From Alphaproteobacteria bacterium (GTDB taxonomy: Bacteria > Pseudomonadota > Alphaproteobacteria > Bin95), in the NCBI GenBank assembly GCA_963665325.3, contig CAXXWS020000003.1:160001-224000 (forward strand): a stretch of DNA of 64,000 nucleotides, read 5' to 3'. Shown one piece after another: positions 2,695-64,000 of this stretch (position 1 is its first letter; each line of letters opens with the position of its first letter). The notes under the pieces were generated by a model. The model ran no database searches, had not been told where the DNA came from, and worked only from the letters and a program-made list of their open reading frames with translations. The position numbers and the translations under genes are program-made.

Positions 2695-3621
2695 ATGAAT
2701 CGAGCGATGAATGCAGCCGACTGGGGCCTTCTGCTGACGACAGCAGTGCTTCTGGGCAGCACCTTTCTGTTCCTCAACATCGCCGTCGCCGAAGTGCCGC
2801 CGCTGACCGTTGCGGTATCGCGGGCGCTGATCGCGGCGCCCATCTGCTGGGTCATGATGCGCGCATTCGGCGCGCGCATGCCACGGACCCGGCAGGAATG
2901 GGTCGCGCTCTTCTGGCTTGGGCTGCTGACGGGCGCGATCCCGTTCGGGTCGCTCTCCTGGGGCCAGCAGCATATCGAAAGCGGCATGCCCGGCATCCTG
3001 TTCGGCACGATGCCGGTCCTGTCGGTCGTTCTCGCGCCGCTGTTCCTGGCCGAGGAGACATTCACGCGCCGGCGTCTGATCGGCGCCGCGGTCGGGCTGG
3101 CGGGCGTCGTGCTGGTGATGGGTCCGTCGGTGCTGGTCAATTCCGGCGATCGGGCGCTCGCCGTCTTCATCACCTTTCTCGCCCCCTTGAGCCACACACT
3201 GGGCGCGATCTACGCCCGCCGGCAGCCCGGCCTCGCGCCGCCGGCCATGGCCACCGGGCAGATGATCTTCGGCGCCCTGATCCTGACGCCGCCGGCATTG
3301 ATCCTGGAAGCGCCGCTCGGCCTTACGCCCAGCATGGGAGCGCTCGGCGCGATCCTCGTCACCGGCGTTGCCTGCACCGCGATTGCGATGAGCCTGTATT
3401 TCGTCGTCGTCCGGCGCATCGGCGCCACCCGCAGCTCCCTCGTGCCGCTCTTCTTTCCCCCGGTTGCCGTGTTCCTGGGCGCGGCGGTCCTCGGCGAACG
3501 GCTGCCGGTCGAGGCCTTTATCGGTCTGGCGCTGATCATGGCCGGTGCGCTGGCCGTAGGCGGCGCAACGGCCAAATCGCCCGAACCGGCCGCCACCGCC
3601 GCCCGGGCGGAAAGGGTGTAG
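2695..3621 (+). CDS. DMT/EamA-family transporter
   Basis: About 10 TM segments in two EamA repeats (LAPLFLAEE; VFLGAAVLGERL). Confidence 0.9.
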   Translation: MNRAMNAADWGLLLTTAVLLGSTFLFLNIAVAEVPPLTVAVSRALIAAPICWVMMRAFGARMPRTRQEWVALFWLGLLTGAIPFGSLSWGQQHIESGMPGILFGTMPVLSVVLAPLFLAEETFTRRRLIGAAVGLAGVVLVMGPSVLVNSGDRALAVFITFLAPLSHTLGAIYARRQPGLAPPAMATGQMIFGALILTPPALILEAPLGLTPSMGALGAILVTGVACTAIAMSLYFVVVRRIGATRSSLVPLFFPPVAVFLGAAVLGERLPVEAFIGLALIMAGALAVGGATAKSPEPAATAARAERV

Positions 3622-3708
3622 ATGCCGGCGTGACCTGCGCCGGATAATGTGCCGACCCTGACGCGGCCGGGGATGCCGGTCGCTAACCGCGCCGAACGGT
3701 CCTGCGCC

Positions 3709-4251
<543 letters not shown>

Positions 4252-4262
4252 CGAAGGCTTCC

Positions 4263-4688
4263 TCATCCGACCTGGGTGCCGTAGGTGCCGCGCCCGACCG
4301 CGACCAACCTGCCCTGTTCGTCGTAAACGTCGATATCGACTACCGCGACCGTCCGTCCCGCCCGGCGCACCTTCGCCTTGCCGGTGAGCGCGGTGTTCGA
4401 GGCCGGGCGCAGGAAATCCGTGCGGTAGTTGATGGTCGGCACGCCGCCGCCCCGGTTTATCACCAGCGCATAGTCGCCGACCGTGTCGATGAAGGCGGAA
4501 ATGACCCCGCCGTGATACTGGCCCGTGCCGTGCGCGCGCTCGAACTCCGGGCGCATCTCGATGCGCATGGCGATCTCTTCGGCCTCGGCGTCGGCGTGGG
4601 TCACGGTAATGCCCATGCCGGCGTTGAAGGGCGAAGCGTCGATCTTGGCCTGGAGCGCAGCGACGGTGAGCGGCAGCGTGTCTGTCAT
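4263..4688 (-). CDS. PaaI-family hotdog thioesterase
   Basis: SPFNAGMGI...[11 protein letters not shown]...[13 protein letters not shown]...[11 protein letters not shown]. Confidence 0.9.
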
Positions 4689-45553: not shown

Positions 45554-48500
45554 GAGAGTGTATCACGGGCTTGATGGCGGAAGCCGGCGTCGCAACCGGC
45601 GAGGACGACTCTGCCGCCAAGCCCGGTTCTGCACCGGTCACCGGCTGCGCCCGGCGCCCGCCCGCGTCCCGCGCCTACCAGCGCAGCGCGCCGCGCAGCA
45701 TCACGCCGTGCTCGGCCTTGCCGGCTCCGTTGTCATTGGCTGCCTCGTGGCGGGTGGCCTCGACGCCCAGCGAGAACGAACGCAGCCGCTCCGATGAGAA
45801 CCGCCAGCCGAGGCGCCAGTCACGCGCCCCGGCATCGCCGAACCCGAAGCCCGCATAGGGCGTGCCGGTCAGGCCGTCCGACAGGGACAGACCATAGCCG
45901 AGTTCCGTGTCGAGGCGTACGCCCGGCTGCTCCCTGTCGCCGTCCCCGGCCAACCCGCCGGGCGCCGCATCCCACAGCCGCCCGGCCTGGTCCCGGGCGC
46001 CCCATGACGGCGTCATCGACAGCGACAGCCCGCGGCCCGACGCACCCGGAACCATCCGCAGCGAACCGCTCGCTCCCCATTCGTCGTAGCCGCCCGCCTC
46101 ATGCGCCGCCAGGCCGTAGAGGCGAAGGTCCGAGGTCAGACCGGCTGCCGGCGCGGACCATGTGAGCCCGGCGCCCACCTCCACGCCCGAACCCGTCTCC
46201 GCATCGCCGCCGTCATGGCGCAACCCGAGCGACAGCGACGGCGCCAGCGCCCCGCCGTCCGCCAGCGCGAACGCCCGCGACCCTTCCAATACGGCCCGCA
46301 CGCGGCTTGCATCGCCCGTCGCAGCCCCGAGATTGCCGACACCGGGCGTCGATACCCGCGCCGACACGCTCCGCACGAAGAACGCATCCGTCTTCAGCGC
46401 CAGCGCAAGCCCGCCATCGGCCCCGGGACGCAGCAGCTCTGCGCGCCCGCCCGCGGCCGCAAGCTGCACGGCGATGTCCGCCGTCTGCCATCCGTCGCCC
46501 CGCGAGAGCGACATGGAGCCGCTCCCCGAACCGACCACGCTCCAGAACGACAGCCGCTCGCCCGCCTGCACGTGCATATAGGGCGTAACCATCGAGAGCG
46601 CGCCCTCGATGTCGTATTGCAGACCCGTTTGATCGAACGCCGCGCTACCCTTCTCGACGCTCCGCGACAGCGCCACTCCGACCAGAAGCCTGTCCCGCTC
46701 CCAGTCCATGCCGAGCACGCCGGTCGCCGTCTCGCTCGTAAACGACAGCCCGCCGCCAGACGAACTGCTCGACCCGCCCGACAGCACCTTGCCCCAGCCG
46801 GTCATCGCGCCCCCCAGGCCCGACGCCTCGCCGGTCGTGAAGTGGAACGAACTCCCGAGCAGAAGATCGCGCCCCGTAACCGGCTGCGCCGGCGCCAAGG
46901 CGACGGCCTCGTTCCAGGATCCGCCGATCCCGTGCCGCGCGAACCGGTCGTCGTCGTTCGCCACCGGCGCACCCGGCGCGCCCGGCGCGCCGAACGTCCG
47001 CGCAAGCCCCGTCATCGTCTCCGCCAGCGCCTTGTCGTCGCCGATCCGCGAGAGGTCCATGCTCTGGCCCGCCACCGTCATCGTCATGCGCGGCGAGGCG
47101 TCCGACCCGATGGCGAAGCGCCCCTCCAGAGCCTGGATTGTCTGGAGGGCCACCGTGCGCCCGAAGCGCGAGAGCCACATCTTCTGGAGCGGATCCGAGT
47201 TCGTGATGGTCCCTGTGGCCGTGGCGTCGGAGAGCCACGCCCCCGACGGGTTCGACAGCGTCAGCGTCAGCGTCTCGCCGTCGTCGTCATGGGCGTCGTC
47301 GAGCACCGGCACCGACACCGTCTTCGACGTCTCGCCAGCCGCGAAGCTGAGCGTGCCCGACGCCGCCGTGTAGTCGTCGCCCGCTACCGCCGTCACGTCC
47401 GACGTGGCGTAGTCCACCGTCACCGTGCCCGACGCCGCGCGCGACAGCTCGACCGTAAAGGCCAGCGACGCGTTCAGGCCCTCGTCCGCCTCCGCGTCCT
47501 GAACCGCAAGCGAAGGTGGGCCCTGGATCGTGGCCGTCACCGGCCCCGTGAGCGAACGTCCGCCGCTCGCGCACACCGCGCCCGGCTGGCCGCAGGCCGG
47601 CAGCGGCGTCGCCAACGCCAGCGTCACCGCTGCGTTGCCCGACGGCTCGATCGTCAGCTCGAAACCCTGCTCCGAGCCCTGCTCGGTGCGCTTCGCGCGC
47701 TCGATCCTGCCGCCGCTCACCGTGAACAGGCTGTCGCGCACTGTCCGGAAGCCCACCCTCTCCGGCTCCTCGCTGAACGCGAGCTTCAGCGTGAACGTGC
47801 CCGACCCGTCATGCTCGGTCGGCACGTTCTCGAACGACGCCGTGAGCGGCGTCACCGTCGGACCCGCGATCTCCGCGCTCGCCGCGGCCGACAGCTTGAG
47901 TCCCCCGGCCGCGCAGATGGCACCGGTCCCATTGCACGCGCCGGTGGTCGCCGGCAGGTGCACCGTCACCGGACCGGACCCGGAGGGCTCTACGCGGATC
48001 TCCCACAGATCGCTCCGACCGTCCACACGCCTCGCGCCAGTCACCGCCCCGCCGGTCACAGAGAACGCCTCGTCGCGCAGCACTCGGAAGCCGGTCACGA
48101 TCGCCTCGCTGAATTGCAGGCGCAGCGTGATGGTGCTGCCGGCCCCGGAATGGGCATTGGGAACGACCGGCCAGCTCGCCGTCAATGGCCCCTCCGCAGC
48201 CGGCCGGGTGACCTTCGTGACGCCGGGATGGTCAAGCGCCACCGTGGGTCCGTTGAGGCTGCGGATTTCGCCGCCGTTCGTGGAAAGACTGTCGGCCACC
48301 AGGGCGACCTTGCGAAGCGGACTCTGCGCCGTCGTCACCACGTGCTCGAGCACCAGCCGGTACGCGCCCGAAACCCCGGAAAACGACGCTCTCGCCTCGG
48401 TCTCCCGATCGCCGAGCTTCAGCGTGACACCTGGAATGCCGTTGGTTGTCGTCACCGTGATTCGTTCATCGAACTCGAGTGTCACGCGGATACGCTCTCC

Positions 48501-51500
48501 GGTCGTCCACTCGCCGTTGCCGTCGTCGTCATCCAGGACTTGTGCAGTAGTCACTCTGGATCGGACTTCGACCTCCGGGCTGGAGCTGTCGCAATCGGTG
48601 GCGTCGGATGTATCGCGCCGGAATTCGGCGGACGCCAGATTGCCCGCCGCGGTGACGGCATGGGTCACCGCGGCGGCCGGGACACTCACCGTCACGGGCT
48701 GGCCCCACGTGGTGGGCGTGACCCGCACCCGGTAGCCCAGCATACGGTCGTACGGTCGATCGACGAGGTATGCCGTGGCATTGGCGAGGATGACGTCGTC
48801 GCCCGGATCGAATCCCTGCACGGGCTCGTAATGAAGGATTCCGTCGCGCCTCGTCGTGAAGCCGATGGTGACAAAGAAGGAACCCTGTTCGTCCGCGGTC
48901 GTCGCCGGATCGTCGAAGTCGCGGCAAACCGGGTCCGGCACCGGCGTGTCGCCGGACAATCCGCTGTCTCCCGCGCGCACCACTGTCCGGTGCGGCCTGG
49001 ACAGATCGACCGACACAGCGTAGGCGTCGTTCGAGACGACCCAGCTACCGCCGTTGCGTGCGCGCATTCGCAGGGCATAGCGCTGATTCCCGATCACCGA
49101 CAGGACGCGGTAGCCGAGGCCGTCCACGCATTCGACATCGGAAGAGCCGGTCCCCATGGGCTGCCAATGCGTGCTGTCCCAATCGATCGGGCTCGAGGGA
49201 TCGACGGCGATCATCTTCATCCCGATATCGCGCAACGCGCTCGCCTGCACACCGTCGGGCTTCCAGCAAACGTCGATCGCCGTACCGCCCTGCGCTGTGT
49301 CCCGAGGGGACAGCCCGATTGCGGTCAGCCCCGTCGCTTCGGTCGTGACTTCGGCTGCCACCGCAGCCGACGGCGGGCTCGCGCCGTTCGCTCCGATGGC
49401 CGACACGCGGTAGTGACGCGTCTCGCCGGTGTTCAGGCCCGAACGATGCACGTAGACGGTGTCGGCGCTGCCGGTATCGCCTTCCACCTCGGCCCATACG
49501 GCACCTCCGTCGTAGGATGCTTCGATCCTGTAGCCCAGAACGGCACCCGGCGGCGCCGTCCAGCGCAGCGTGACCCGCCCCGCGGTCGCCGCGACGCTGT
49601 CGATGACGACTCGACCCGGATTTGGCGACGCCGGCTCGTCGTCCAGGACCGTCACCGACAGGTCCATTCTCTCCGAGCCGTAGCCCCCGCCCGAGGCGAC
49701 GTGCGTCAGCGCCGCGGTGTCGTTCGTCGAATCGGCATCATGGCCCGCCGTCACCTCCACCGTCTGCGCTTCATCCCAGTTCGACGGGGTGAAGGTCAGG
49801 TTCGTCCTGTCGAGCTCCAGCTCCGTCGCCGCCGTCCCCGCGATCGTCACCGTCACCATCGCCGTCGGCTCCGACCTCAGCGCCACCGTGTAGCTTCGGC
49901 TCTCGCCCTCATCGACCGCCAGCGACGACGAGCCGATCGCCAGACCCCGCTCGTCGTCGTCCACGATCGTCAGCGTCGTCCCCATGACCGTCAGCCCCAC
50001 CGTCGCCGTCATTCCCGACATCGTCAGCATCTCGTCGGCCTCGGCCACGTCGTCGGGCGTCGGTGTCAGCGTGAATGTTGCCGTTCCCGAGGTCTGTCCG
50101 GCTGGAATGGTGAGCGTCAGATCGTTCACCGTCGCGTAGTCCGTTCCCTCCGCCGCGGCGTCACCGCTCGCGCCTACCGAGACCGTCAACACCGTGTCCG
50201 TTGCGTGGGAGGAATTGTTCAGGGTTCCCGTCACGGTCACGGTGGTCGCGGCTGCGTCCTCGGCCACAACCGACGGGGTCGTCGACAGGCTCACCGTCGT
50301 CGAGACGATCTCGTCGTCGTTCACGGTCACCGGGACGTCGTCCGCCTCCACCGAGGCATAGTCCGCGCCCGAGACCGCGTGCGTCACGGTCGCCGTGTCA
50401 TTCTCCGGATCATCGTCTTGGGCCGCCGACACCGTCACCGTCTTTACGTCGTTCCAGTCGTCGGTCGTGAAGGTCAACGTCGCGGGCGACACCGTGACGT
50501 CCACGTTGTCGCTCACCGCCGGCGTCACCGTCACCGTCCCGGTGGGCCGGGTGCCGAGCCTGATGTGGTAACGACCCGAATCTCCTTCGTCGATCGCGAG
50601 CGAATCGGCGCCAATCAGCACTCTCGCGTCATCCGGGGGCGTCAGGCTTCCGTCCACCTTGTGGTCGGACACATTCCTCAGCGACCCGTGAGCGAGTGAA
50701 GCGTTCGTGCCATCAGCATCGCGAATGGTCCCTCGGCGGAGCTTGAGAGAATTGACATTGATGGTGATGCCGTCGTCGTCCGCGTCGCCGCTCTGTACCG
50801 TGTAGCGGAACACCAGTGTGTCGGTTCCGCTGCCGTCGGCGTAGTCTAGGAACGGCTTGGAGACCGATCCCGAGCCCGTCGACCGAAGCGAAAACCTCAA
50901 CCGGGGCGTGCCGCCGCCAGTGTCCACGTAGACCGCCTTGCTGAACCGGACGCTCGCCTCGATCGTCTCACCCGCCCCGTAGGTGCCGACCCCCGCGGCA
51001 GGTATCGAGGACGGGGAGACCCCGCCCGCGACGATGACCGGCCGCGCGGCATTGATCGCATGGCCGGCCTGCGAAGAAAGCGCCACAGTGGAGTACGACT
51101 CGCGATCGACCTCGGCCGCGATGGCGTCGTTTACTTCCCTTCGCGTGATCATCCCGCCGTTCAGCGACAAGGCCGAGGAGGTCGCCATGGGCCCAAGGGG
51201 GGCATAGTCGCCGGTGGTCACCGCGTAGTCGAAAAGCGCGGTCCTGTCGCCTGACATGCCGCTGTAGGTGGCATTCGCGGTCAGGCCCGCGTGCAGGTAG
51301 AAGCGAAACGTCGGCATGCCGCCATCGGTCACGAACCGAACGTCCCGGTCGAAGGTCACCGCGAAGCGAATCGTCTCGCCCGTGGCGTAGCTGCGGCCGC
51401 TCGTCGGGGTCGAAGCGACACTCGTGCCGGCCACGAGCGGCGCGACATGCACCTTGTGCGCCGACCTGTTCGTCAAGGCGTCATGCGACAATTCCGCATT

Positions 51501-53095
51501 CTTGCCGTTCGATGTGCCCGTGATCGACCCGGCATTCAGCGCCAGGCTGCTTGCCACGACGCCGACCCCGTCATGATCGTAGTCACCCGCCCCGACCTCG
51601 TAGGAGAACACCAGGTCCGTCGTCGTGCTCTCGGAGGCGACGTAGCTCGCTTTCCTGGTCTCGTTAAGCTGGAGTTCGATTTGCGGCGTGCCGGCGACCG
51701 TGACGGCCCTCGAGAATCTCAGTCGGATCTTGATGTCGTCTCCGGCCACATACTCGCTGTCTGCGCCGGCCTGCGAGATGATGGCAACCCCGTCCGCAAC
51801 GATTTTCGGCGGCGTGTCGGGATCCACCGCCGCCTCCACCGTCACCGTGTAGGGCGCACTCGCCGCGGCGTTCCAGTCCGCCGACGCCGCCGCCGACGCC
51901 GTCACCGGGCACGACCCCACCCCCACCAGCGTCAGCACCCCGGTCGACGCCGCCACCGAGCACACCCCCGACGCCGAGGCCGGCACCGAGTAGCTCACCA
52001 CCGTCTCGGCACCGCTCGGCGCCGTCACCGTCGGCGCGCTCGCGCCCAACGTCACCGTCGACGCGCTGTAGGCGAACCCCGACAGGTCCTGCTCCCCCTT
52101 CGCCACCGCCGGGAACGTGATGTCCACCGCCGCCGGGTTGCCCGCCGCGTCGAGCACCGTCACCACCGCCTCCGACGCGGACGCGGACGCCGCCGTCGGC
52201 GTGCCCGACACCACCCCCGTCGACGCCGCGATGGCCAGCCCCGCCGGCAACCCCGACGCCTCATACCCGGCGATGTCCGCACCGTCCGTCGGGCTCAGCG
52301 CCGCCATCGCCTCGCCCACCTGCAGCGCCGCCGGCGCCACATATGTCGGCGCCGTCGGACCGCTCAGGTCCACAACCACCGTGCGCGTCACATCCGCCGA
52401 CGTGTACCCCGACTTCTGCGCCGACACCGTCACCGTCACGCTCGCGCCCGTCACATAGGACGCGTCCGCCGGCACCCGCACCGACCACCGCGCCGCACCC
52501 GACACATCCGCCGACGTCGCCGTCAGCGTCGTCCCGCCAATCTCAACCTCCACGCCCGCACCCGTCACCGTGCCCGTGCCGCCCGAAATCGCGAACCCAG
52601 ACGCCTTCTCCGCGATGTTCACCGTGTCGTCGCCCGCCACCTTGTCGACCGTCAGCTCCAGCGACGGCGGCGTCTCGTCGTCGGCGAGCCCGAGCGTCGT
52701 CCCGGTCACCGTGAGATCGTCCTCGCGGCCCGACACCGCGATCGTCTCGGCCCCCTCGTAGACAGCGTCGTCGGTCGGCGTCAGCGTGAACGTCGCCTCG
52801 CCCGTCGGCGCGCCGGCGGCGATGAGTGTGCTCTCGGTATCTGATGGCGGGATGGTCACGTTGTTCGATGGTTTTCAGGCGTCGGGCCGGGCGTGACGGC
52901 GGGGGTGTCGGACGGCCGTCGGCGCGTCAAGCCGCTTCGCGGCTCCTGCGCTGCGCTCCGGCCCTTCGGGTGACCCGCCGCCGTCCCTCCGACGGAGTGC
53001 ATCCATGGCCGTAAGCAAGCTTCCGGCCACGGGCCGGCCGCTTTACGCAGTGTGACAATGGGAGCGGTGTTACCCGTTACCGTTACCCTCTCTCC

Positions 53096-54094
53096 CTAGG
53101 GGTTCGAGGCGGTAACGGTTTTCGGTAACGTGTCCCTGCGGTCGTTGCCGTTGAGGGCGGCGAGGCGGTATCCGCCTTCGGATGCGCGCTCGACGCGTCC
53201 TTCGCGGACGAGCCTGTGCAGCGCCTCGGCGACGGTTGCGGGCCGGGTTGCCGCGCGCTCGCGGATCCGGCGCTGGGAGAGCGGCGCGTCGGCGTCGGCG
53301 AGGGCCTGCAGGATGCGCCGTTCGGGGGTATCCGGCTCCGGCGCCTGGTCTTCCGGCGTCTCGCGCAACCGCAGGGCGGGGCGCTCGTCGTCGTCGGCGA
53401 GTTCGATCTCGAGGTCTTCGAGGCCAGGGGCGTCGCGATGCTCGACGGTCATGAGGATCTGGCGGTCTCGCCGGCGCAGGTACAGATTCGAATCGCCCCA
53501 GGCGTGAAGTTCGCTGCTGCCGCGCAGCGCCTGCCCGGGCCGGGAGCCGCCGCTCTTTCGTGCGTGATGGACGAGGAGGACGGCGGTTTCGAAGCGGCGC
53601 TGTATGTCGCGCAGGAAGCCCAGCATGGGGGCGACCTCGGCGACGGTATTTTCGTCGACGCCGTGCAGGCGCACGAGGGGGTCGAGGACGACGAGGCGGG
53701 GTGAGACGCGCTCCACCGTCTCGACCAGGCGCTGGCGATCGGCGCGATGGTCGAGACGCAGCGTGGGCACGTCGATGACGGCGATGTCGAGGGTCTCGAA
53801 CGCGGTGCCTGCCGCCTTTGCGATGCCCTGGAGGCGTGCGCGCACGATATGGCCGGCGTCCTCGGCGGCGAACAGCAGCACGGGGCCGCTTGCGGCGGGA
53901 CGGAAGTGGCGCAGGCAGGGGACGCCGGCGGCGACCGCGACGGCGATGTCGAGTGCGAGGAAGGATTTGCCGCACTTGGGCTCGCCGCCGACGATGCCGA
54001 CGCCCTGCTCGGACCACAACGCCTCGACCATCCAGCGGCGCGCCTGGGGGCGCTCTTCGAGCTCCGCCGGCGCCCGTGTCGGGAAGCCCTTCAC
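53096..54094 (-). CDS. AAA_25/RecA-family (RepA-like) ATPase with C-terminal winged helix
   Basis: GGEPKCGKS, AAED, VVLDP, VHHARK, LRGSSELHAW; GTGA overlap with the upstream gene. Confidence 0.85.
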   Translation of the reverse strand: MKGFPTRAPAELEERPQARRWMVEALWSEQGVGIVGGEPKCGKSFLALDIAVAVAAGVPCLRHFRPAASGPVLLFAAEDAGHIVRARLQGIAKAAGTAFETLDIAVIDVPTLRLDHRADRQRLVETVERVSPRLVVLDPLVRLHGVDENTVAEVAPMLGFLRDIQRRFETAVLLVHHARKSGGSRPGQALRGSSELHAWGDSNLYLRRRDRQILMTVEHRDAPGLEDLEIELADDDERPALRLRETPEDQAPEPDTPERRILQALADADAPLSQRRIRERAATRPATVAEALHRLVREGRVERASEGGYRLAALNGNDRRDTLPKTVTASNP

Positions 54095-54924
54095 CGCCGC
54101 GCCCTCCTCGGCTTGGCGGGTTCGCCCAGGGTCTCGATGAAGAGCTTCTCGTCGAGGACCTCGCGCTCCTTCTCGGCGGCGGCGGCGAGCAGGGCGTCGG
54201 CCATGACGGTGAGCGCCCGCGGGTTGCCGTCGGCATGGGCGACCAGGGTGTCCTTGAGGCCCGCGGTCATGAGGCCGGGATTGCCGGCCTGCTCGATCAG
54301 ATGGTCGAGCAGGGCCGCGAGGTCGCCGGCCTCGGCCTTGGTCATGACCAGGCGCTGGCGGATGCGCGAGGCGATGGGCTGCAGATCGGGCTGGCGGAGC
54401 TTGTCGAGCAGGCGCGTGTCGCCGGCGAGGACGACCGAGAGGATGGCGCGCGAGTCGAAGTCGGTCGAAGCCAGCAGGCGGATCTCGGAGAACACCGAGG
54501 GCAGCAGCTCCTGGGCCTCGTCGACGAGCACGACGGGGCGCATGCGGGTATCGTCGACATGGGCGAGCCAGCGCTCGCGCAGGCTTTTGAAGCTGGCCCA
54601 GCGGTTGTTGTACATCAGGTCGACGCCGAACATCTCGCCGATCTCGCGGTAGAAGTCGGACAGCCGGGAGGAGGGATGGGTGATGGCGGCGATGCTGAGC
54701 CCCTCGCAGCGGCCGAGACGGTCGGCGAGCAGGCGCAACGCCACACTCTTTCCGGCGCCGGGCTCGCCGGCGATCAAGGCGAAGCCGCCCTGGCGCACCA
54801 GGTGGCGCTCGATCCTGAGGCAGAAGCTGTCGACGGCAGGCGTCGCCATGAGACTGTCGACCGGCAGGTCGGTGGCGAAGGGGTTCCACTTGAGCCCGTA
54901 GAAGGTGAGCAGTTCCCGGTTCAT
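54091..54924 (-). CDS. ExeA-family AAA ATPase (putative transposition helper)
   Basis: YGLKWNPF, GEPGAGKS, VLVDEAQ, GNPRAL; ATGA overlap with the transposase. Confidence 0.87.
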   Translation of the reverse strand: MNRELLTFYGLKWNPFATDLPVDSLMATPAVDSFCLRIERHLVRQGGFALIAGEPGAGKSVALRLLADRLGRCEGLSIAAITHPSSRLSDFYREIGEMFGVDLMYNNRWASFKSLRERWLAHVDDTRMRPVVLVDEAQELLPSVFSEIRLLASTDFDSRAILSVVLAGDTRLLDKLRQPDLQPIASRIRQRLVMTKAEAGDLAALLDHLIEQAGNPGLMTAGLKDTLVAHADGNPRALTVMADALLAAAAEKEREVLDEKLFIETLGEPAKPRRARR

Positions 54925-56396
54925 GGCGCATCTCCCCGATCTTCGTCCTCGCCCGGACCGGGCGTCTTGTCATGGGGCAGCCAGGCCGGCGGCAGGCCGG
55001 TTGCGGCCTGGGCGTCGAGCATGCCCTTGAGCAGCGGCGGAAGTTCCCCCGTCCCCGCGCCGCCATTGCCATCGTTGCCGCCGGGGCCGGCGGGACGGCG
55101 CACGCCATCGGCGTTGCCGCGCTTGTCGAGGGGGTACAGCGTGCACAGGCGCTCGCCGCCTCGACCGTCGATCAGATCGACGCTGGCGAGGTTCCAGCGC
55201 GCGTAACGGATCCAGGCCTCGCGCAGGTGGCGCCACGGCTGTGGCACCTGGTAGCGGATGCCCTCGACCGAGACGGTGCCGTCCGAGCGCCTGAGCGTGC
55301 GCTTCCTGGTGATGCGGAAGGCCGCCTTGAGCTCGGCCGAGCCGGGGCAGGATCTCGACGCGTCGACGCTCCCGGCCAGGCGTTGATGCGGCGTCATGCC
55401 GAGCTCGCGGTGCTTGCGGCGGTGATAGTCCTGCTCCAGCCAGGCGATGGTGGCGTCGTTGAGCATCTTCAAGGTAAGCGCGTCGACGCCTTCGAGCTGA
55501 GCCATCAGGCGCGATTCGACCGTGCCCCAGAACGACTCGATCTTGCCGTTCTGATGGGGGCTGTAAGCGAGCGTCGTGACCCCCGCGATGCCGAGCCGGT
55601 GCAACCCCTCCTCGACCTCGCCCGCGGTCATCGCCGCGCCGTTGTCGGTCAGCAGGGACCTCGGCAGACCGCGCTTCATGAAGGCCTGGCAAAGGCCGTG
55701 GACGAACACCTCGGCGGTCTCGGCGAGGTACCACTGAAGGTGGCAGCCGAGGCGCGAGTGGTCGTCGAGGAAGCCGAGCAGGATCGGCGTCTTCCACTCG
55801 CCCGAGGCGGTCAGCACGCGACGCTTGGCGCTGTGCATGTCGGCGTGCCACAGGGCGTGAGAGCGCGAGACCTCGTAGCTCAATACCTCGCGGGCTTCGA
55901 CCGCCGGCCTGGCCTCGCTCTCATGCCACTTGCGCCGGCGCTTGCGTACCAGCCCGCGAGCCCGCATCGCCCGGGTCAGCGTCGCGTAGGACGGTATCGG
56001 GCCGAGCTCGGGATCGGCCTCGACCCGCGCGGCCAGATTCTCGTGATGAAGCTGCGCCGACCACGACGGATGCGCCCGGTACTGCTCGTGCAGCGCCTCG
56101 ATCAGCGTCGGCGACATCGCGCGCGGGCGCCCGGCATCGGCGCGCGGGCGCCGCTTGAGCGCCCCCACCGGATCGTTGTCCGCCGCCCGCGCCTGGTAGT
56201 ACCAGCGCTCGATCGTGGACACCGCGAAGCGCACCCGGCCCTTGCCGGACGGGTGATCCCACTCGCGTTCGGCAAGCCGCTCAAGCTCGGCGTGCAGCCG
56301 CCCCGCCGGCGGCGGCGAGGCCAGAAGCGGCCCGACCACCGCGAAGCGCAACCGCGCCCACCGGTCGCGACGCTCGCTCCCGTCGTTGCTGTTCAT
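54921..56396 (-). CDS. DDE transposase (rve core with Mu-like C-terminal domain)
   Basis: HTH STIERW; WHADMH, FLDDHSR, LTDNG, QNGKIE; DGTVSVEG.RY.VP. Confidence 0.9.
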   Translation of the reverse strand: MNSNDGSERRDRWARLRFAVVGPLLASPPPAGRLHAELERLAEREWDHPSGKGRVRFAVSTIERWYYQARAADNDPVGALKRRPRADAGRPRAMSPTLIEALHEQYRAHPSWSAQLHHENLAARVEADPELGPIPSYATLTRAMRARGLVRKRRRKWHESEARPAVEAREVLSYEVSRSHALWHADMHSAKRRVLTASGEWKTPILLGFLDDHSRLGCHLQWYLAETAEVFVHGLCQAFMKRGLPRSLLTDNGAAMTAGEVEEGLHRLGIAGVTTLAYSPHQNGKIESFWGTVESRLMAQLEGVDALTLKMLNDATIAWLEQDYHRRKHRELGMTPHQRLAGSVDASRSCPGSAELKAAFRITRKRTLRRSDGTVSVEGIRYQVPQPWRHLREAWIRYARWNLASVDLIDGRGGERLCTLYPLDKRGNADGVRRPAGPGGNDGNGGAGTGELPPLLKGMLDAQAATGLPPAWLPHDKTPGPGEDEDRGDAP

Positions 56397-56444
56397 TCCG
56401 GCATCCCCCTCGCTGCTTCGTGGAGGTGCCGATGATGCGGTGCC

Positions 56445-57059
56445 CTATCCGTGCATCATAGAAACGCTTTCTGCGGGCGAAGCCGGACCTGCGCCGAGCG
56501 CGCAAAAGCCGGTCCACGGCATCAGCCAGACCAGGCTCCGCAGCAGCCGCGAGCGGAAGCCACGGCCCCGCATGATGCGCAGCAGCCGGCGCAGCGGCGC
56601 CTCTTCGGGCGGCGCCGCCAGCTCGCCCCGTCTCGCCTGCCACTCCCGGGTCAGCGGGAAGGCTTCCAGCCACCAGCGCCGCCAGCGCTTCAGCGTCGAG
56701 GCCGGAACCCCGCACCGCCGCGCGATCGTCTGCAACCGCGCGCCGCCGGCCACAGCCAGCGCACTCACCACAAGGAACAGCGCCCCGACGTAAAAGCGCC
56801 TGCCGAAGAAACGCACCGACGGCGGCTTCACGCGGCGTCGGCACACCGAACAGCACAGGCTGAAGCGCCGAACGTCGTTCCGAAGATTCGCCGCCAGACC
56901 GTGCGGCTTGCGCGGGTAGCTCGCGCTGTGAAGCGCGCCGCCGCAGCGCGGGCAACCCGCCGCCCGGCACGCCTCCGCCTCGGCCGCGTCGACCTGCTTC
57001 AGAAAATCCCAAACCCGGGCGTTGGAGAGATTGGAGTGCCGGAACAGCTTGTGCGACAT
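56445..57059 (-). CDS. Zinc-finger plus HTH protein of the transposon
   Basis: CPRCGG...H...RKP...CCSVCRRR, then LQTIARRCGVPASTLKRWRRWW HTH. Confidence 0.75.
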   Translation of the reverse strand: MSHKLFRHSNLSNARVWDFLKQVDAAEAEACRAAGCPRCGGALHSASYPRKPHGLAANLRNDVRRFSLCCSVCRRRVKPPSVRFFGRRFYVGALFLVVSALAVAGGARLQTIARRCGVPASTLKRWRRWWLEAFPLTREWQARRGELAAPPEEAPLRRLLRIMRGRGFRSRLLRSLVWLMPWTGFCALGAGPASPAESVSMMHG

Positions 57060-60000
57060 TGGGGCCGTCTCAGGTTGATGTCACTGTCACCGAGACAAGC
57101 CCTCCGGCGGCCTTCTTGCAAGATCGCCGGGGGGCACCCAATCCAAAACCTCGATTAATCCGAGCCGATCAGCCCCTGATCGCCGCTGAAAGCCTGCGCC
57201 CGCTCAGCGATGGTCAGCGACAGCGCCCCGACCGTCGCGTAATCGGTGCCCTCGGTCGCGGTGTCCGACGCCGACCCGACCGCGACCGTCACGCTGGTGG
57301 CGCTCGCGCGCGGCGCGTGGTCCAGCGTGCCCGTCACCGTCACCACCGTCGCACCGGCGTCCTCGTCGACACTCGTCGGCTCGACCGACAGCGCCACCGC
57401 CGTCGACGCCGTCTCGTCGTCGTCGACCGTCACCTCGACCGCGGCCACCGTCACCGACCCGTAGTCGCCCCCCGAGACAGCGTGCGTAACCCGCCCGCTG
57501 TCCGCGTCCCCGTCCGGGTCGTGCTTCGCGCTCACCGTCACCGTGCGCGCCATGTTCCAGTTCGACGGCGTGAACGTCACCGTCGCCGGCGCCACCGACA
57601 GGTCGGCATTGCTCTGCGCCGACGGCGTCACCGTCACATCGCCCGTGGGCTCGGAGGCCAGCACCAGGGTGTAGGTCGCGGAGCTGCCCTCCGGCACCCC
57701 CAGCGTCGCGACGCTCGGCGTGACGCCGCGCACATCGTCCTCGCCGATCGTCAGCGTCGCGCCCGTCACGCCCAGCCCGGTGACCGTCGTGGCTCCCGTC
57801 ACCGACACCGTCTCGTCGCCCTCGTCCACCGCGTCGTCGCTCGGCGTCAGCGTGAACGTCCCCGTGTGCGACACGCTGCCGGCCGGAATGGTCAGCGTGA
57901 AGTCGTCCACCGCCGTGAAATCCGTCCCCGACGTCGCCGTGTCCGAGCCGACGCTCACCGTCACCGGCGTCGCCGCGTCACGGACGCCCGCATCCAGCGA
58001 CGCCGTCACCGTCACCACCGTCGCGCCGGCGTCCTCCGCCACCGTCGTGGGAGCAAGCCCCAGCGACACCGTCGTCGAGGCCGCCTCCACCGTCACCGTG
58101 TAGGGCGCACTCGCCGCGGCGTTCCAGTCCGCCGACGCCGCCGCCGACGCCGTCACCGGGCACGACCCCACCCCCACCAGCGTCAGCACCCCGGTCGACG
58201 CCGCCACCGAGCACACCCCCGACGCCGAGGCCGGCACCGAGTAGCTCACCACCGTCTCGGCACCGCTCGGCGCCGTCACCGTCGGCGCGCTCGCGCCCAA
58301 CGTCACCGTCGACGCGCTGTAGGCGAACCCCGACAGGTCCTGCTCCCCCTTCGCCACCGCCGGGAACGTGATGTCCACCGCCGCCGGGTTGCCCGCCGCG
58401 TCGAGCACCGTCACCACCGCCTCCGACGCGGACGCGGACGCCGCCGTCGGCGTGCCCGACACCACCCCCGTCGACGCCGCGATGGCCAGCCCCGCCGGCA
58501 ACCCCGACGCCTCATACCCGGCGATGTCCGCACCGTCCGTCGGGCTCAGCGCCGCCATCGCCTCGCCCACCTGCAGCGCCGCCGGCGCCACATATGTCGG
58601 CGCCGTCGGACCGCTCAGGTCCACAACCACCGTGCGCGTCACATCCGCCGACGTGTACCCCGACTTCTGCGCCGACACCGTCACCGTCACGCTCGCGCCC
58701 GTCACATAGGACGCGTCCGCCGGCACCCGCACCGACCACCGCGCCGCACCCGACACATCCGCCGACGTCGCCGTCAGCGTCGTCCCGCCAATCTCAACCT
58801 CCACGCCCGCACCCGTCACCGTGCCCGTGCCGCCCGAAATCGCGAACCCAGACGCCTTCTCCGCGATGTTCACCGTGTCGTCGCCCGCCACCTTGTCGAC
58901 CGTCAGCTCCAGCGACGGCGGCGTCTCGTCGTCGGCGAGCCCGAGCGTCGTCCCGGTCACCGTGAGATCGTCCTCGCGGCCCGACACCGCGATCGTCTCG
59001 GCCCCCTCGTAGACAGCGTCGTCGGTCGGCGTCAGCGTGAACGTCGCCTCGCCCGTCGGCGCGCCGGCGGCGATGGTCAGCGACAGCGCCCCGACCGTCG
59101 CGTAATCGGTGCCCTCGGTCGCGGTGTCCGACGCCGACCCGACCGCGACCGTCACGCTGGTGGCGCTCGCGCGCGGCGCGTGGTCCAGCGTGCCCGTCAC
59201 CGTCACCACCGTCGCACCGGCGTCCTCGTCGACACTCGTCGGCTCGACCGACAGCGCCACCGCCGTCGACGCCGTCTCGTCGTCGTCGACCGTCACCTCG
59301 ACCGCGGCCACCGTCACCGACCCGTAGTCGCCCCCCGAGACAGCGTGCGTAACCCGCCCGCTGTCCGCGTCCCCGTCCGGGTCGTGCTTCGCGCTCACCG
59401 TCACCGTGCGCGCCATGTTCCAGTTCGACGGCGTGAACGTCACCGTCGCCGGCGCCACCGACAGGTCGGCATTGCTCTGCGCCGACGGCGTCACCGTCAC
59501 ATCGCCCGTGGGCTCGGAGGCCAGCACCAGGGTGTAGGTCGCGGAGCTGCCCTCCGGCACCCCCAGCGTCGCGACGCTCGGCGTGACGCCGCGCACATCG
59601 TCCTCGCCGATCGTCAGCGTCGCGCCCGTCACGCCCAGCCCGGTGACCGTCGTGGCTCCCGTCACCGACACCGTCTCGTCGCCCTCGTCCACCGCGTCGT
59701 CGCTCGGCGTCAGCGTGAACGTCCCCGTGTGCGACACGCTGCCGGCCGGAATGGTCAGCGTGAAGTCGTCCACCGCCGTGAAATCCGTCCCCGACGTCGC
59801 CGTGTCCGAGCCGACGCTCACCGTCACCGGCGTCGCCGCGTCACGGACGCCCGCATCCAGCGACGCCGTCACCGTCACCACCGTCGCGCCGGCGTCCTCC
59901 GCCACCGTCGTGGGAGCAAGCCCCAGCGACACCGTCGTCGAGGCCGCCTCCACCGTCACCGTGTAGGGCGCACTCGCCGCGGCGTTCCAGTCCGCCGACG

Positions 60001-63000
60001 CCGCCGCCGACGCCGTCACCGGGCACGACCCCACCCCCACCAGCGTCAGCACCCCGGTCGACGCCGCCACCGAGCACACCCCCGACGCCGAGGCCGGCAC
60101 CGAGTAGCTCACCACCGTCTCGGCACCGCTCGGCGCCGTCACCGTCGGCGCGCTCGCGCCCAACGTCACCGTCGACGCGCTGTAGGCGAACCCCGACAGG
60201 TCCTGCTCCCCCTTCGCCACCGCCGGGAACGTGATGTCCACCGCCGCCGGGTTGCCCGCCGCGTCGAGCACCGTCACCACCGCCTCCGACGCGGACGCGG
60301 ACGCCGCCGTCGGCGTGCCCGACACCACCCCCGTCGACGCCGCGATGGCCAGCCCCGCCGGCAACCCCGACGCCTCATACCCGGCGATGTCCGCACCGTC
60401 CGTCGGGCTCAGCGCCGCCATCGCCTCGCCCACCTGCAGCGCCGCCGGCGCCACATATGTCGGCGCCGTCGGACCGCTCAGGTCCACAACCACCGTGCGC
60501 GTCACATCCGCCGACGTGTACCCCGACTTCTGCGCCGACACCGTCACCGTCACGCTCGCGCCCGTCACATAGGACGCGTCCGCCGGCACCCGCACCGACC
60601 ACCGCGCCGCACCCGACACATCCGCCGACGTCGCCGTCAGCGTCGTCCCGCCAATCTCAACCTCCACGCCCGCACCCGTCACCGTGCCCGTGCCGCCCGA
60701 AATCGCGAACCCAGACGCCTTCTCCGCGATGTTCACCGTGTCGTCGCCCGCCACCTTGTCGACCGTCAGCTCCAGCGACGGCGGCGTCTCGTCGTCGGTA
60801 ATCGTCCCGGTTGCCGTCGCCTTCGTTCCCAGCACGGCATTCGACGAGGGGCTCGAGAGCGTCAGCGTGAAGGTCTCGGCGTCTTCGTCGGTGCTGTCGG
60901 CCAGGGTGGAGATCGAGATGGTCGCGCTCGTCTGACCGGCAGCGATGGTCAGCTCCGCATTGCTCGCAGGTGGCGTGTAGTCCGTCTCGGCCGTCGCCGT
61001 CACGTCCGTGGTCGCGTATTGCACGGTCACCGCCGACGAAGCCGGCGGATTGAGGGTCACCGTGAATTCAATCGGACTGCCCTCGGTCGCCGAGGCATCG
61101 GAAACCGTCAGCGTCGGTGTGTCGTCGTCGGTGATGGTGGCCGTGGCCGTCGCGACGCCGATACTGGCGTTGATTGCATTGCTGAGTGTCAGCGTGAAGG
61201 TCTCGGCGGACTCGATGAGGGTATCGTCGGTGATCGCCACCGAGACGGTCTTGCTGGCCGTGTTCGCGCCGATGGACAGGGTGCCGGACACACCGGTGTA
61301 GTCCGAACCGGCGACGGCCGTGCCGTTGGCGGTCGCGTAGTCCACGGTCAGCGCTTCACCGCTCACCACGTCCAGCGCCACCTCGAATACGGCGCTGCCG
61401 GCATTTTCCGACACGGTCAGGTTCCGGACCGAGAGCACCGGCTCGGGACTGTCGTTGCGCACCGCACGGAAGTTTATGTGGCCGGCCTCGTTGCCCCACA
61501 GGTCCTGGATGGGGTTCGTGCCCGGGGTATAGGACACCTTGGTGCCGCCGTAGGCGTGGCCCAGGGCGGAGTCGAGTGTGAGGGTCAGCGTCGCGCCGTC
61601 GATCTCGACGGCCGACACCGTCGCAACGCGTCCGCCCTCCAGGACAACGACGAAGTCGCCGGAATCCGGAACCGAGCCCGGGTCCAGATGCTCGGCAACT
61701 CCGCTCGCGCGTTCGAAGGTGAGCACCAGCGCGGCGCCGTTGACCACCGCGCCCGAGGCATCGCTCACGAGCACCGGCGCGGTGGTGTCCGCCTGGACGC
61801 CGGTGGTGAATTTCCCGTGGCGAAGATTGACCGCCCCATTGGTCGAGTCGCTGATGCTGCCGCCCCTCAGGATCAATCCGCGATCGGTGAGCATCGTGCC
61901 GTCCGAGCCGGCATTGGACGGGACGCTGATTGCGGATTCGGTGCCGGGAACGTCCGTCTGTACCGTCCAGCTGAACTTCAGCGTCGTGCCGCCCGAGCCG
62001 CTGGCATACGCCGCTTCCTGCAGGGCGCCGTCGCTCGCGCTGAACTTCAACGCCGGCGTGCCGCTGCTCGTGTCGACGCTCACCGCCTCGGAAAAGGTGA
62101 CCGTGAACTCGACGACCTCGCCCGCACCGTAATAGCCCGCCGGCGTGCCGACCGACGGGCTCGACGTGACCGCGATACTCGAAATGACCCGTGTGTGGAT
62201 GCTCCCGCCGGTCGCGGCGGCATGACCGATATTGGCAGCGACGGTGGTGTCCTTGTTGAATATGCCGCCGCCGTTCAACTCCAGTGCGTTGGCGGCCACT
62301 GTCACGCCGTCGGTGTCGTCATCGTCCGACTCGGTCACCGATCTGCGAAACACCAGCACCGTATCCGTGCTGGCACTCGCGCTGTAGCTCGCGTAGCTGT
62401 TTGTCGAGGCCGTACCATCGAGTTGCAGCGCCAGCCGCGGCGAGCCGGTCACACCCACCGCCTGGTCGAAGGTCAAGCTCACTTCCACGACATCGCCGAC
62501 GCCGTAATCACCGCCCGATGGCGCGTTGGTGAAGGCGACCCCCGTGATCGTGGCCCTGGCCGAATCGTCGTTCACGATGGTGCCGGTGGCCGTTGCCGTT
62601 CCGATCACGGCGTTCGACGTCGGGTTCGAGAGCGTGACCGTGAAGGTTTCATCCTCCTCATCGATCACATCGTCCCCGGTGACGATGGATATCGTTCCAC
62701 TGGTCTGACCGGCGCCGATCGTCAGGGAGGCGCCGGACGCGGGTGGCGTGAAGTCCGCCCCGTCCGCGTGCATCGTGTCCGAGGTCGCCGTGCCGTCGGT
62801 GGTGGCATATTCGACCGTCACGGCGCCCGAAGCCGCCCGGTCCAGCTTCACCGTGAATTCGACCGCGGCGCCCTCGGTGGCCGAAGCATCCTCGATGGTG
62901 ATCCTGGGCAGTCCGGGCGTGGCCGAGACCTCGTCGGAAGGCGTGCCGTCGGATGACCCGCTTCGCGTGGCAATCACGCGCACCGTGTAGCTCGTACCGT

Positions 63001-64000
63001 CGGTGAGAGCGGGGATCATGTGGCTGACGGTCGAGCCTGACGAAACGGTCGCTTGACGGGCGTCGGTCGCCGCATCGGCAAAGGATTCGGCGCCGGATTT
63101 CCATTGCACCTTGTAGCCGCCGGCGCCGGCGACCGCCGACCACCTGACAGTCAATGAACCCTGGTCGGGCGTGGCCGTCACGCCCATCACCTGCGACGGC
63201 GGACTCTCGTCGTCGGCGATGGTCACCTGCGCGGTACAGCCGTTCGTGCATACGGCCACACCTGGCGGCACCCCGCTGTCGAGAACCAGTACCTCGAAGT
63301 TCTCGTCACCTTCGACATCCGTGTCATCGATCAATTCGAGATCGAGTGCCTTGGTTGCCACGTAACGGTCACCTGAAGCCGCGAAATCTGAGGCCGCGAA
63401 GCGCACTAGCTGCTGTTGTGGAAAGTTGTAGTCCTGAGTTCTCGTGGCGGATCCCGCGTTGCTGCGCACGATGAGTCTCAGGTCCGCCATGTTCGTCGGC
63501 TCGGGCACGCCCGCTGCCGTTTCCGCAACGAGATTGAGCGTCACCGTGCCGGCATTCTCGAGAAAACCGTAGCTGCTGCGGTCAAGGGTGATGTCGAGGG
63601 CCGGATTGGCGGCCACCATGTTGACGGTGGATGAATCGTTGCTGCCGGAATCGTAGCCGACGCCGGATGCGATGGTGGCAGTCAGCGTGCCGTCGGCGTC
63701 AACGCCAGGTCTGAAGTCGTCGAGCCCGAGGGTGAGAGTCGCAGATGCCTGGTTGGCCGGAATGGTTACGGTTTGCGACAGTCTGGAAGCCGTCAGAAAC
63801 TCCTGGCTCTGAGTGAGGGTGACGGCCACCTCGAGCGGTGCGGCGCCGACCGGCGTTCGCGTCACGGTGAAACCCACGTCTTCGAGGACGAAGGGGACGC
63901 GCGAGTCGACACTGGCAATCGAGACGGTCGATGATTCGCGCGTCACCGTCAGGGTGTAGGTGCTCTCGGGCCGGGGCGGTCTTGCCGCCTTGACGGTGAT

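Follow-up and report, generated by a model that had tools for sequence, protein, structure and literature searches.

A probable Tn6049-lineage transposon carrying a putative helicase module shared with a distant transposon lineage

Positions 52823 to 57206 of a 64-kb window from an alphaproteobacterial genome (contig CAXXWS020000003.1) hold a 4,384-bp transposon, inserted in a giant, repeat-rich surface-protein gene and with all of its genes on the minus strand. Coordinates refer to this window, the whole stretch of DNA that was analysed, unless a contig of its own genome (C1 to C4 of G000, a genome of 5 contigs and 5.58 Mb) or a numbered locus (L) is given. A first-pass annotation made from the letters alone had drawn the boundaries of the element by means of an empty sister repeat, and had described very short inverted repeats and a duplication of GCGA. 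All of this holds. When the two flanks are joined with one GCGA, the resulting sequence is present at a single place in the window, 59061-59088, which belongs to the adjacent, uninterrupted repeat of the same giant gene; it matches there with 0 mismatches, and none of 100 shuffles contains this predicted empty site. The genome contains 24 copies of the element, all of which share the exact ends TGAGTGTGC...GCCCGCTCA. The terminal inverted repeats lie at 57198-57206 (the gene-proximal or left end, where the gene strand reads TGAGCGGGC) and at 52823-52831 (the right end, where the plus strand reads TGAGTGTGC). Of the 9 positions of TGAGTGTGC, 7 are the same in the reverse complement of GCCCGCTCA, and relatives have longer, almost perfect inverted repeats in the same position, such as the 26 nt of L056. 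The two copies of the GCGA target-site duplication occupy 52819-52822 and 57207-57210; a 6-bp reading, GCGATG, had also been entertained, but can be discarded, since the TG belongs to the element itself in 24 of 24 copies.

The exact duplication is 5 bp long in 10 of the 24 copies, 4 bp in 8 (that in the window included) and 6 bp in 2, and is absent from 4, two of which have 5 bp with one mismatch while the other two have swapped flanks. The target sites have only a weak palindromic preference, nCnGn. Just inside the right end are two direct repeats, CGGTATCTGATGG (52835-52847) and CGTTGTTCGATGG (52859-52871), which lie 24 bp apart and whose arrangement recurs in an alignment of the right ends of relatives; we regard them as candidate transposase-binding sites. 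The suggestion that the element was recently active is borne out by its copies, 21 of which are identical and 22 of which have all four frames intact. Bursts are also seen in other genomes, again as many identical copies with duplications of 4-6 bp.

The four genes form the operon that had been proposed (a zinc-finger/helix-turn-helix (HTH) protein, a DDE transposase, an ExeA-type ATPase and an AAA_25 protein with a winged HTH (wHTH)), as domain searches confirm. Open reading frame 1 (ORF1; 56445-57059, 204 aa) combines a zinc-ribbon-like CxxC...CCxxC pattern with HTH_23 and is separated by a gap of 48 bp from the transposase gene (54921-56396, 491 aa; Pfam rve, rve_3 and HTH_32). Then come the gene for an AAA_22 ATPase, an ExeA/GspA-like protein of the MuB-like helper kind (54091-54924, 277 aa; Pfam AAA_22, E 5e-20), and ORF4 (53096-54094, 332 aa, GTG start), in which AAA_25 (E 5e-36) is followed by the C-terminal wHTH. 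The last three genes are coupled, as had been noticed, because ATGA joins transposase and ATPase and GTGA joins the ATPase stop to the ORF4 start. ORF1 represents a family of ~190-aa proteins that spans 1,624 representative clusters and has invariant Cys positions. A structural model of it (predicted local distance difference test (pLDDT) score of 72.8) gave 0 Foldseek matches against the PDB at E 0.001 or better; its best matches there were zinc-ribbon fragments at E 0.5 or worse, and no tie to TniQ or to a solved protein was obtained. In a protein atlas, DUF6431 is annotated on 32-44% of the members of some clusters neighbouring ORF1, which we treat as a lead only.

The second and third proteins probably form a transposase-plus-helper pair of the Mu, Tn552 or IS481-like kind. 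To this point the matches of the transposase to phrog_310 'transposase' (E 2.4e-40) and of the ATPase to phrog_296 'DNA transposition protein' (E 1.4e-23), together with a best NCBIfam match of the transposase, the IS481 model NF033577 (E 8e-36), that at 123.9 bits lies below the model's cut-off of 224. The best NCBIfam match of the ATPase, TIGR03015 (ExeA-like; E 3e-27), is below cut-off as well. Among named transposons the kinship is with Tn6049, with identities of 40% for ORF1 (E 1e-28), 51% for the transposase (472 aa aligned, E 7e-161) and 52% for the ATPase (278 aa aligned, E 1.6e-93). A tblastn search of plasmids with the transposase returned 21 records with at least 80% query coverage, all at ~50% identity and all from Cupriavidus, Paraburkholderia and Pseudomonas; the AAA_25 protein found just 4 weak, partial matches in the same collection, and a megablast search of plasmids with the whole element found none. 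The first-pass annotation had known no named family with these genes, a view that has to be given up, as the element agrees with Tn6049 in ORF1, the transposase and the ATPase, in the way these are ordered, and in having TG ends and a short duplication. We judge it very probable that the element belongs to the Tn6049 lineage and has a helicase module added to it.

A simpler label would be that of an ordinary, already known IS481-family insertion sequence (IS) with passenger genes. The family's model is the best NCBIfam match of the transposase, and RefSeq calls the Tn6049 transposase an 'IS481 family transposase'. However, that match falls short of the cut-off, elements of this family have a single gene whereas the four genes here are a conserved unit in the 47 closest related loci (type A, below), and the ATPase matches a MuB-like phage family. 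We consider this label highly improbable.

The distinguishing gene of the element is ORF4. It scores 124.6 bits against an AAA_25 cut-off of 27. Its match in a search of solved structures is the helicase RepA of RSF1010 (1g8y, E 2.4e-8), and it also matches the helicase parts of PHROG phage primase-helicases (E 1e-22 to 1e-9). Its Walker A (GGEPKCGKS) and Walker B (LDP) motifs are invariant in 26 ORF4 sequences, and Foldseek matches it, on a poor model, to RadA, DnaB and KaiC. Judged by these homologies, ORF4 is a predicted RecA-fold AAA_25 ATPase of RepA/DnaB-like kinship, fused to a wHTH and putatively active as a helicase. Around its stop codon (53070-53130) are inverted hexamer repeats, with GTTACC three times at 53070-53089 and GGTAAC twice at 53112-53130; relatives bear equivalent repeats with lineage-specific hexamers (GGGAAC, GGAAAC or GGAACC). 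The wHTH probably binds these repeats, which are a candidate wHTH-binding or iteron-like site.

Relatives of ORF4 are numerous. Of 8,000 scored candidates, 7,823 reach E 0.001 or lower, and identities among the best 120 are 72-100%. When genomes were scanned with ORF4 itself, 80 related loci were obtained, a sample that is biased by this choice of query and is not a transposase-first census. The loci come from metagenome-assembled genomes labelled Alphaproteobacteria, Chloroflexota, Dehalococcoidia, Acidimicrobiales and Acidobacteria, many of which hold dozens of copies each, and ORF4 is 70-80% identical in genomes labelled Alphaproteobacteria, Chloroflexota, Acidimicrobiales and Acidobacteria. 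Directly upstream of ORF4 there is an AAA_22 gene in 80 of 80 loci, and a transposase is present in 78, the remaining two ending at a contig edge.

These loci fall into two types. In the 47 of type A, the products of ORF1, the transposase gene and the ATPase gene are 63-91% identical to those of the element and the ends read TGAG..CTCA. In the 33 of type B, which are ~4,380 bp long with ends TGTTGT..ACAACA and duplications of 4-6 bp, identity to the element's proteins falls to 26-29% for both transposase and ATPase, the transposase has a Mu-transpos_C domain, and the first ORF is a different one that encodes a Cys/His-rich protein of 214 aa with no Pfam match. L072 (3973-8352) is an example of type B, and others are L038, L049, L052 and L088; types A and B coexist in the same genomes, with many copies of each. 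Yet ORF4 is ~78% identical between the two types, and their DNA homology (76-80% identity) occupies element coordinates 3103-4306, beginning ~10 bp before the ORF4 start and ending ~80 bp before the right end. Because the homology is confined to this segment, ORF4 and the ~190 bp behind it are a cassette that has been exchanged between two distant transposon lineages. This exchange speaks in favour of DNA or host factors as the partners of ORF4, and against contacts that have co-evolved with the transposase or ATPase. The first-pass annotation had made its reading depend on conservation of the AAA_25 gene in homologous elements, and here the answer is divided: the gene is absent from Tn6049 proper and present in all 47 close type-A relatives as well as in the 33 loci of the second lineage.

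The module that travels in this way comprises the ORF4 gene, the inverted GGTAAC repeats and a structured block of ~110-150 nt. In the window the block lies at 52893-53048 on the minus strand and consists of a hairpin (~53003-53048) followed by a three-way-junction fold (52893-53002) that contains an invariant core, GGGTCACCCGAAGGGCCG, three hairpins with GNA triloops, and CTTGAC. In the fold drawn from a 40-sequence alignment, a long and variable closing stem surrounds the three-way junction. Covariation support for this fold is strong: 88.6% of cells are paired, against 27-41% with slid partners, 20 of the 33 base pairs change on both sides, and slid partners have a covariation score of 0.03-0.06 where the fold has 0.297, with 0 of 500 shuffles reaching the observed value. 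A covariance model (R1) finds 24 matches in the element's own genome, only in the 24 copies. Rfam gave 0 matches on the element at E 1 or better. A protein-coding block was ruled out by relatives with a 1-nt indel, an in-frame TAG and compensatory changes in stems.

The motif is not confined to these transposons. A scan of metagenome contigs with the 18-nt core gave 80 loci, of which ~25 have the ORF4-type block, ~20 have a wider motif with no ORF4 nearby, and the rest are chance 18-mers. The wider motif shares the core, the hairpins, TTGAC and the co-varying closing stem, and is found at L109, L111, L115, L120, L122, L124, L125 and L128 and further at L129, L131, L133, L140, L146, L151, L172 and L173. 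At L129 it lies ~95 bp upstream of an ArdC gene, on the strand that is the gene's template, and has a TAGAAA bubble where a -10 would be; at L133 and L146 it is beside ISL3 transposase genes, and at L111 and L128 in intergenic DNA. Several wider-family members have a -10-like hexamer (3-5 of 6 matches) 15-19 nt after TTGAC. A promoter of the Frpo type, active on single-stranded DNA, was considered for the ORF4-type block as well and rejected for want of a -10; it is a lead for the wider family. On seven wider-motif loci Rfam reported a single match, an unrelated group II intron (RF02005, 138.6 bits) at L140 2217-2439, minus strand, which is ~2.6 kb from the motif and does not overlap it.

What the block does is a separate matter from its fold. 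We report it as a new structured motif of mobile DNA, for which a part in priming is a hypothesis. It may instead be RNA (a 3' untranslated region that stabilizes or terminates the transcript, a small RNA or an antisense regulator) or an outward promoter, and not a priming signal on single-stranded DNA, an alternative that we regard as quite possible while giving it less than an even chance. The block sits in the 3' untranslated region on the sense strand, its G-T pairs favour that strand by 17:6, contigs from RNA libraries cover the region (carry-over of DNA is possible), and the wider family has its TTGAC with a -10-like hexamer. But no T-run follows the fold, unlike in an intrinsic terminator, a primase-like gene takes its place in sibling elements, and all three hairpins have C-GNA-G triloops, which are typical of very stable DNA mini-hairpins. 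The RNA contigs come from four libraries in 3 studies, extend over relatives of all four genes and cover 29, 22, 29 and 15 of 30 bins at a likeness of at least 90%; they carry no information on ends, strand or level, may derive from DNA and in many pieces represent relatives, and we base no claim of transcription on them.

Behind ORF4 in the 80 related loci, the block is found in 67 and a gene with DUF3991 and Toprim domains occupies the same place in 10, all of type A (L039, L041, L047, L050, L051, L068, L069, L071, L082 and L090). None has both; two are cut by the contig end and one, L049, has neither. Counted by genome and lineage, ~13 have the block and 7 the primase-like gene. A role as replication helper is favoured mainly because a helicase-like gene travels with either a primase-like gene or a folded element. 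The first-pass annotation had left it between a replication and a targeting function of the element's own, and the evidence (the helicase homology, the primase gene of siblings and the portability of the module) leans to replication. That the module serves replication of the element is nonetheless a tentative proposal, to which we give a little less than even weight.

Targeting has its own arguments. ORF4 could be a target selector or regulator analogous to TniQ, TnsD or TnsE, its wHTH reading a feature of the DNA and its ATPase domain recruiting the AAA_22 protein. In systems of the Mu, Tn7 and Tn5053 type the AAA+ helper usually has a selector as its partner, the GTGA overlap couples translation of ORF4 to that of the ATPase, ORF4 has a DNA-binding wHTH, and 7 of the 24 copies cluster in 120 kb of contig C1. 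Yet one and the same module serves two lineages whose ATPases and transposases are 26-29% identical, contrary to what co-evolved contacts would lead one to expect; nCnGn is all that the 24 insertion sites have in common; Tn6049 works without ORF4; and in 10 of the 80 loci ORF4 is accompanied by a primase-like gene. In addition, a survey of Tn7 target selectors contains no mention of RecA, RepA, AAA_25 or primase (PMC10293859). We think a selector unlikely.

Quite unlikely, too, is the idea that the ORF4 module is a hitch-hiker with no bearing on movement, whether the remnant of a small plasmid or integrative-element replicon or a defence or anti-defence gene, that two transposon lineages have captured. 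The module is portable and lies at the 3' end, where transposons carry cargo, AAA_25-Toprim pairs are typical of plasmid and phage replication modules according to PHROG names, and the wider motif also adjoins ArdC and the ends of ISL3 elements. Homologues of ORF4 with at least 69% identity, however, occur only inside these transposons (80 of 80 loci), translational coupling ties the gene to the transposition operon, and ORF4 has remained intact while the elements multiplied recently in several genomes. Among PADLOC defence families there is no match to ORF4. Two other PADLOC matches were judged meaningless, one of a 30-residue P-loop of the ATPase to 'mad8' and one of part of the relatives' primase to a DnaG-like DRT model.

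The findings can be assembled into a mechanism. What is established is that the element moves and has TG/CA tips, that its target is cut with a stagger of 4-6 bp, that its four genes are coupled and that it amplified recently; the steps beyond this are conditional. The rve transposase would cut at the TG/CA tips and join them to target DNA cut with a 4-6 bp stagger, the AAA_22 ATPase would act as a helper of the MuB, TnsC or IstB type that presents the target, and ORF1, with its zinc ribbon and HTH, may be a conserved DNA-binding accessory or regulator. We infer that transposition is most likely copy-and-paste (replicative or copy-out), because there is no TnsA-like second nuclease and no resolvase and because 24 near-identical copies are present. 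From Mu, Tn7 and Tn5053, replicative or copy-out transposition is the expected behaviour of a lone DDE nuclease without TnsA or a resolvase. Among the element's four proteins there is no Pfam or NCBIfam match to TnsA, TniQ/TnsD or a resolvase, and none to the TniB/TnsC models at E 0.01 or better. In the steps that follow, the wHTH would bind the GGTAAC repeats, the helicase would be loaded at the element, and priming would be supplied by the folded element or, in siblings, by the DUF3991-Toprim primase, such that synthesis across the transposition intermediate or an excised copy could proceed independently of host restart proteins.

Several observations weigh against this reading, of which the replication role is the least secure step. 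Tn6049 reached 12 copies in strain CH34 without ORF4 (PMC2864759), and the type-B locus L049 has ORF4 with neither block nor primase gene behind it; the module is thus not needed for transposition as such. The model of ORF4 is poor (pLDDT 58.9), and at a template modelling (TM) score of ~0.42 a helicase is not separable from an ATPase of the RadA or KaiC type. The ORF4-type block keeps the -35-like TTGAC without a -10-like hexamer (2 of 6 matches in most of 23 sequences). Its excess of G-T over A-C mispairs, 17:6, gives way to 14:15 in the wider family, and with folding z-scores of -2.7 on one strand and -1.6 on the other, RNA and DNA are not separated. Furthermore, many of the 80 loci are copies within one genome, and counts of loci overstate their independence. 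All things considered, the best overall explanation is an autonomous copy-and-paste DDE transposon of the Tn6049 lineage with a replication-helper module, which we regard as probable, if by no means assured. The more general proposal, that small DDE transposons with a replication starter of their own (a helicase, wHTH-bound repeats, and a Toprim primase or folded priming signal) are widespread and exchange it as a cassette, is possible and, for now, doubtful.

Some further features of the copies are worth recording. Of two copies with 1-bp deletions in G-runs, one has lost a base of the transposase gene, with a frameshift as the result (equivalent to window position 55134), and the other a base in the non-coding 5' untranslated region (equivalent to 57134); the pair lies at C1:503215-507597 and C3:175650-180032. 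The copy at C1:2290596-2297053 is interrupted by a different IS of 2,070 bp, whose ends are CCCAAGTTTAAC../..GTTAAACTTGGG and of which the genome holds 12 identical copies. The insertion duplicated CTAG and sits precisely on the stop codon of ORF4, parting ORF4 from the structured block. The two copies with swapped flanks, at C2:25283-29666 and C4:930514-934897, have no matching duplications of their own and match reciprocally (GGTCG and CCGT), which suggests that copies on two replicons have recombined, that there was once a cointegrate, or that the assembly is wrong here. The seven clustered copies lie within ~120 kb at C1:1.98-2.10 Mb, where the local GC skew is unusually strong (~0.10). 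Cumulative GC skew along C1 rises monotonically without a turning point by which to place an origin or terminus and to assign replichores, and a comparison of copy orientation with the direction of replication was abandoned for this reason.

The gene split by the window copy is on the minus strand and encodes an adhesin-like protein of ~4,600 aa with an autotransporter-like C-terminus, in two parts at 45675-52859 and 57155-63946. In the downstream fragment, the longest ORF begins at a GTG (52859) within the right end of the element, from which a truncated product could in principle be read. Beyond the home genome, the only genome of the same genus that was searched (G312; 3.6 Mb in 2 contigs) has no match to the transposase. 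A sample of 400 other genomes of the class has matches at E 1e-40 or better in three, at 50-57% identity, on contigs too short to include the fourth gene; one of the three, G240, is unpublished, and the count of three depends in part on it. The element or parts of it are also present in 20 public runs (X1-X20) from 10 studies, some of them labelled as sponge, coral or marine metagenomes or metatranscriptomes.

At the least, these results tie an abundant and unannotated metagenomic gene family, that of ORF4, to a defined transposon. The covariation-supported motif, which has no Rfam family, may moreover represent a structured nucleic acid of a new class, one that is linked to mobile elements. 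If the proposed mechanism is true, more would follow. For replicative DDE transposition of the kind that Mu performs, the usual view is that the product of strand transfer acquires its replisome through host restart proteins. An element with a helicase and a primer source of its own would alter this view and offer a simple system in which to study the hand-over to replication, and it could explain both the dozens of identical copies and the crossing of phylum boundaries. Such elements would amount to 'self-priming' replicative transposons, and the folded signal to a new and broadly used motif of mobile DNA.

Comparison with known systems places the element most closely beside Tn6049, which was named in 2009/2010 and has, to our knowledge, hardly been studied functionally. 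The two share the order of ORF1, DDE transposase and 'gspA'/ExeA-like ATPase, as well as the 4-bp overlap of the transposase and ATPase genes (seen for Tn6049 in L009). The element's TGAG..CTCA ends and 4-6 bp duplications stand beside TG-initiated short inverted repeats and a 4-bp repeat in Tn6049. In published descriptions, Tn6049 has 12-bp imperfect inverted repeats starting with TGTGC and a 4-bp direct repeat (PMC4739549), and is a 3.5-kb element whose 12 copies in CH34 all have the 'gspA' ATPase (PMC2864759). It is an element of Cupriavidus metallidurans CH34 and is also present on the Pseudomonas plasmid pHS87a. The differences lie in the 3' part. Tn6049 measures 3,517 bp as delimited by its inverted repeats in L009 (4195-7711), against 4,384 bp here, its fourth ORF encodes 71 aa with no similarity to ORF4, and it has no AAA_25 gene, no structured block and no GGTAAC repeats. 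The annotation of the pMOL30 locus reads accordingly: 'transposase' of 181 aa, 'IS481 family transposase' of 479 aa, AAA ATPase of 277 aa and a hypothetical protein of 71 aa. The element does not belong to an unnamed class; it is best filed as a variant of the Tn6049 lineage and not as Tn6049 itself, because it has neither the 71-aa fourth ORF nor the ~3.5-kb length. Our literature search on Tn6049 and on AAA_25, ExeA or DUF3991 in connection with transposons turned up no published four-gene set of this kind, with ISfinder and TnCentral outside its scope. Within that reach, the core is already known as the Tn6049 lineage, and what appears new is the four-gene form with its RepA-like ATPase-wHTH protein, the exchange of the module between lineages, the way in which block and primase gene replace each other, and the structured motif itself.

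Among better-studied transposons, Mu (MuA/MuB), Tn552, Tn5053/Tn402 (TniA/TniB) and Tn7 (TnsB/TnsC) all combine an rve-type DDE transposase with an AAA+ helper. The element, with its rve transposase and putative AAA_22 helper, resembles them in this pairing, in its TG..CA tips and in its repeated subterminal motifs. Its duplication is most often 5 bp, like theirs, yet varies from 4 to 6 bp, and it is far smaller than they are. The IS481 family, which provides the nearest curated transposase model, likewise has short inverted repeats and short duplications, whereas the element has several genes in one operon, among them those for the ATPase and the helicase-like protein. With IS21 (IstA/IstB) it has in common the two-protein logic of a DDE transposase and an ATP-dependent helper, but its helper is AAA_22/ExeA-like and not IstB: the IS21 transposase model NF033546 matches at E 9e-12 with 45 bits against a cut-off of 160, and there is no match to IstB_IS21.

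For the module, the comparisons are with replication rather than transposition. Single-strand promoters and priming signals of the Frpo/ssi kind are documented for leading regions of conjugative plasmids (PMC11541004). By description, the block resembles them in its long imperfect hairpin with a -35-like TTGAC, and differs, in its ORF4-type form, in having a three-way junction and no -10. A further likeness is to the IncQ replication module of RSF1010, which consists of the RepA helicase, the RepB' primase, the RepC initiator, iterons and the ssiA and ssiB hairpins. In the element, similarly, ORF4 matches RepA, short repeated hexamers adjoin it, and a folded element or a primase gene comes next. 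The element departs from the IncQ plan in that its helicase-like protein is fused to a wHTH, the whole module is embedded in a transposon, and the primase of its relatives is of the DUF3991-Toprim type.

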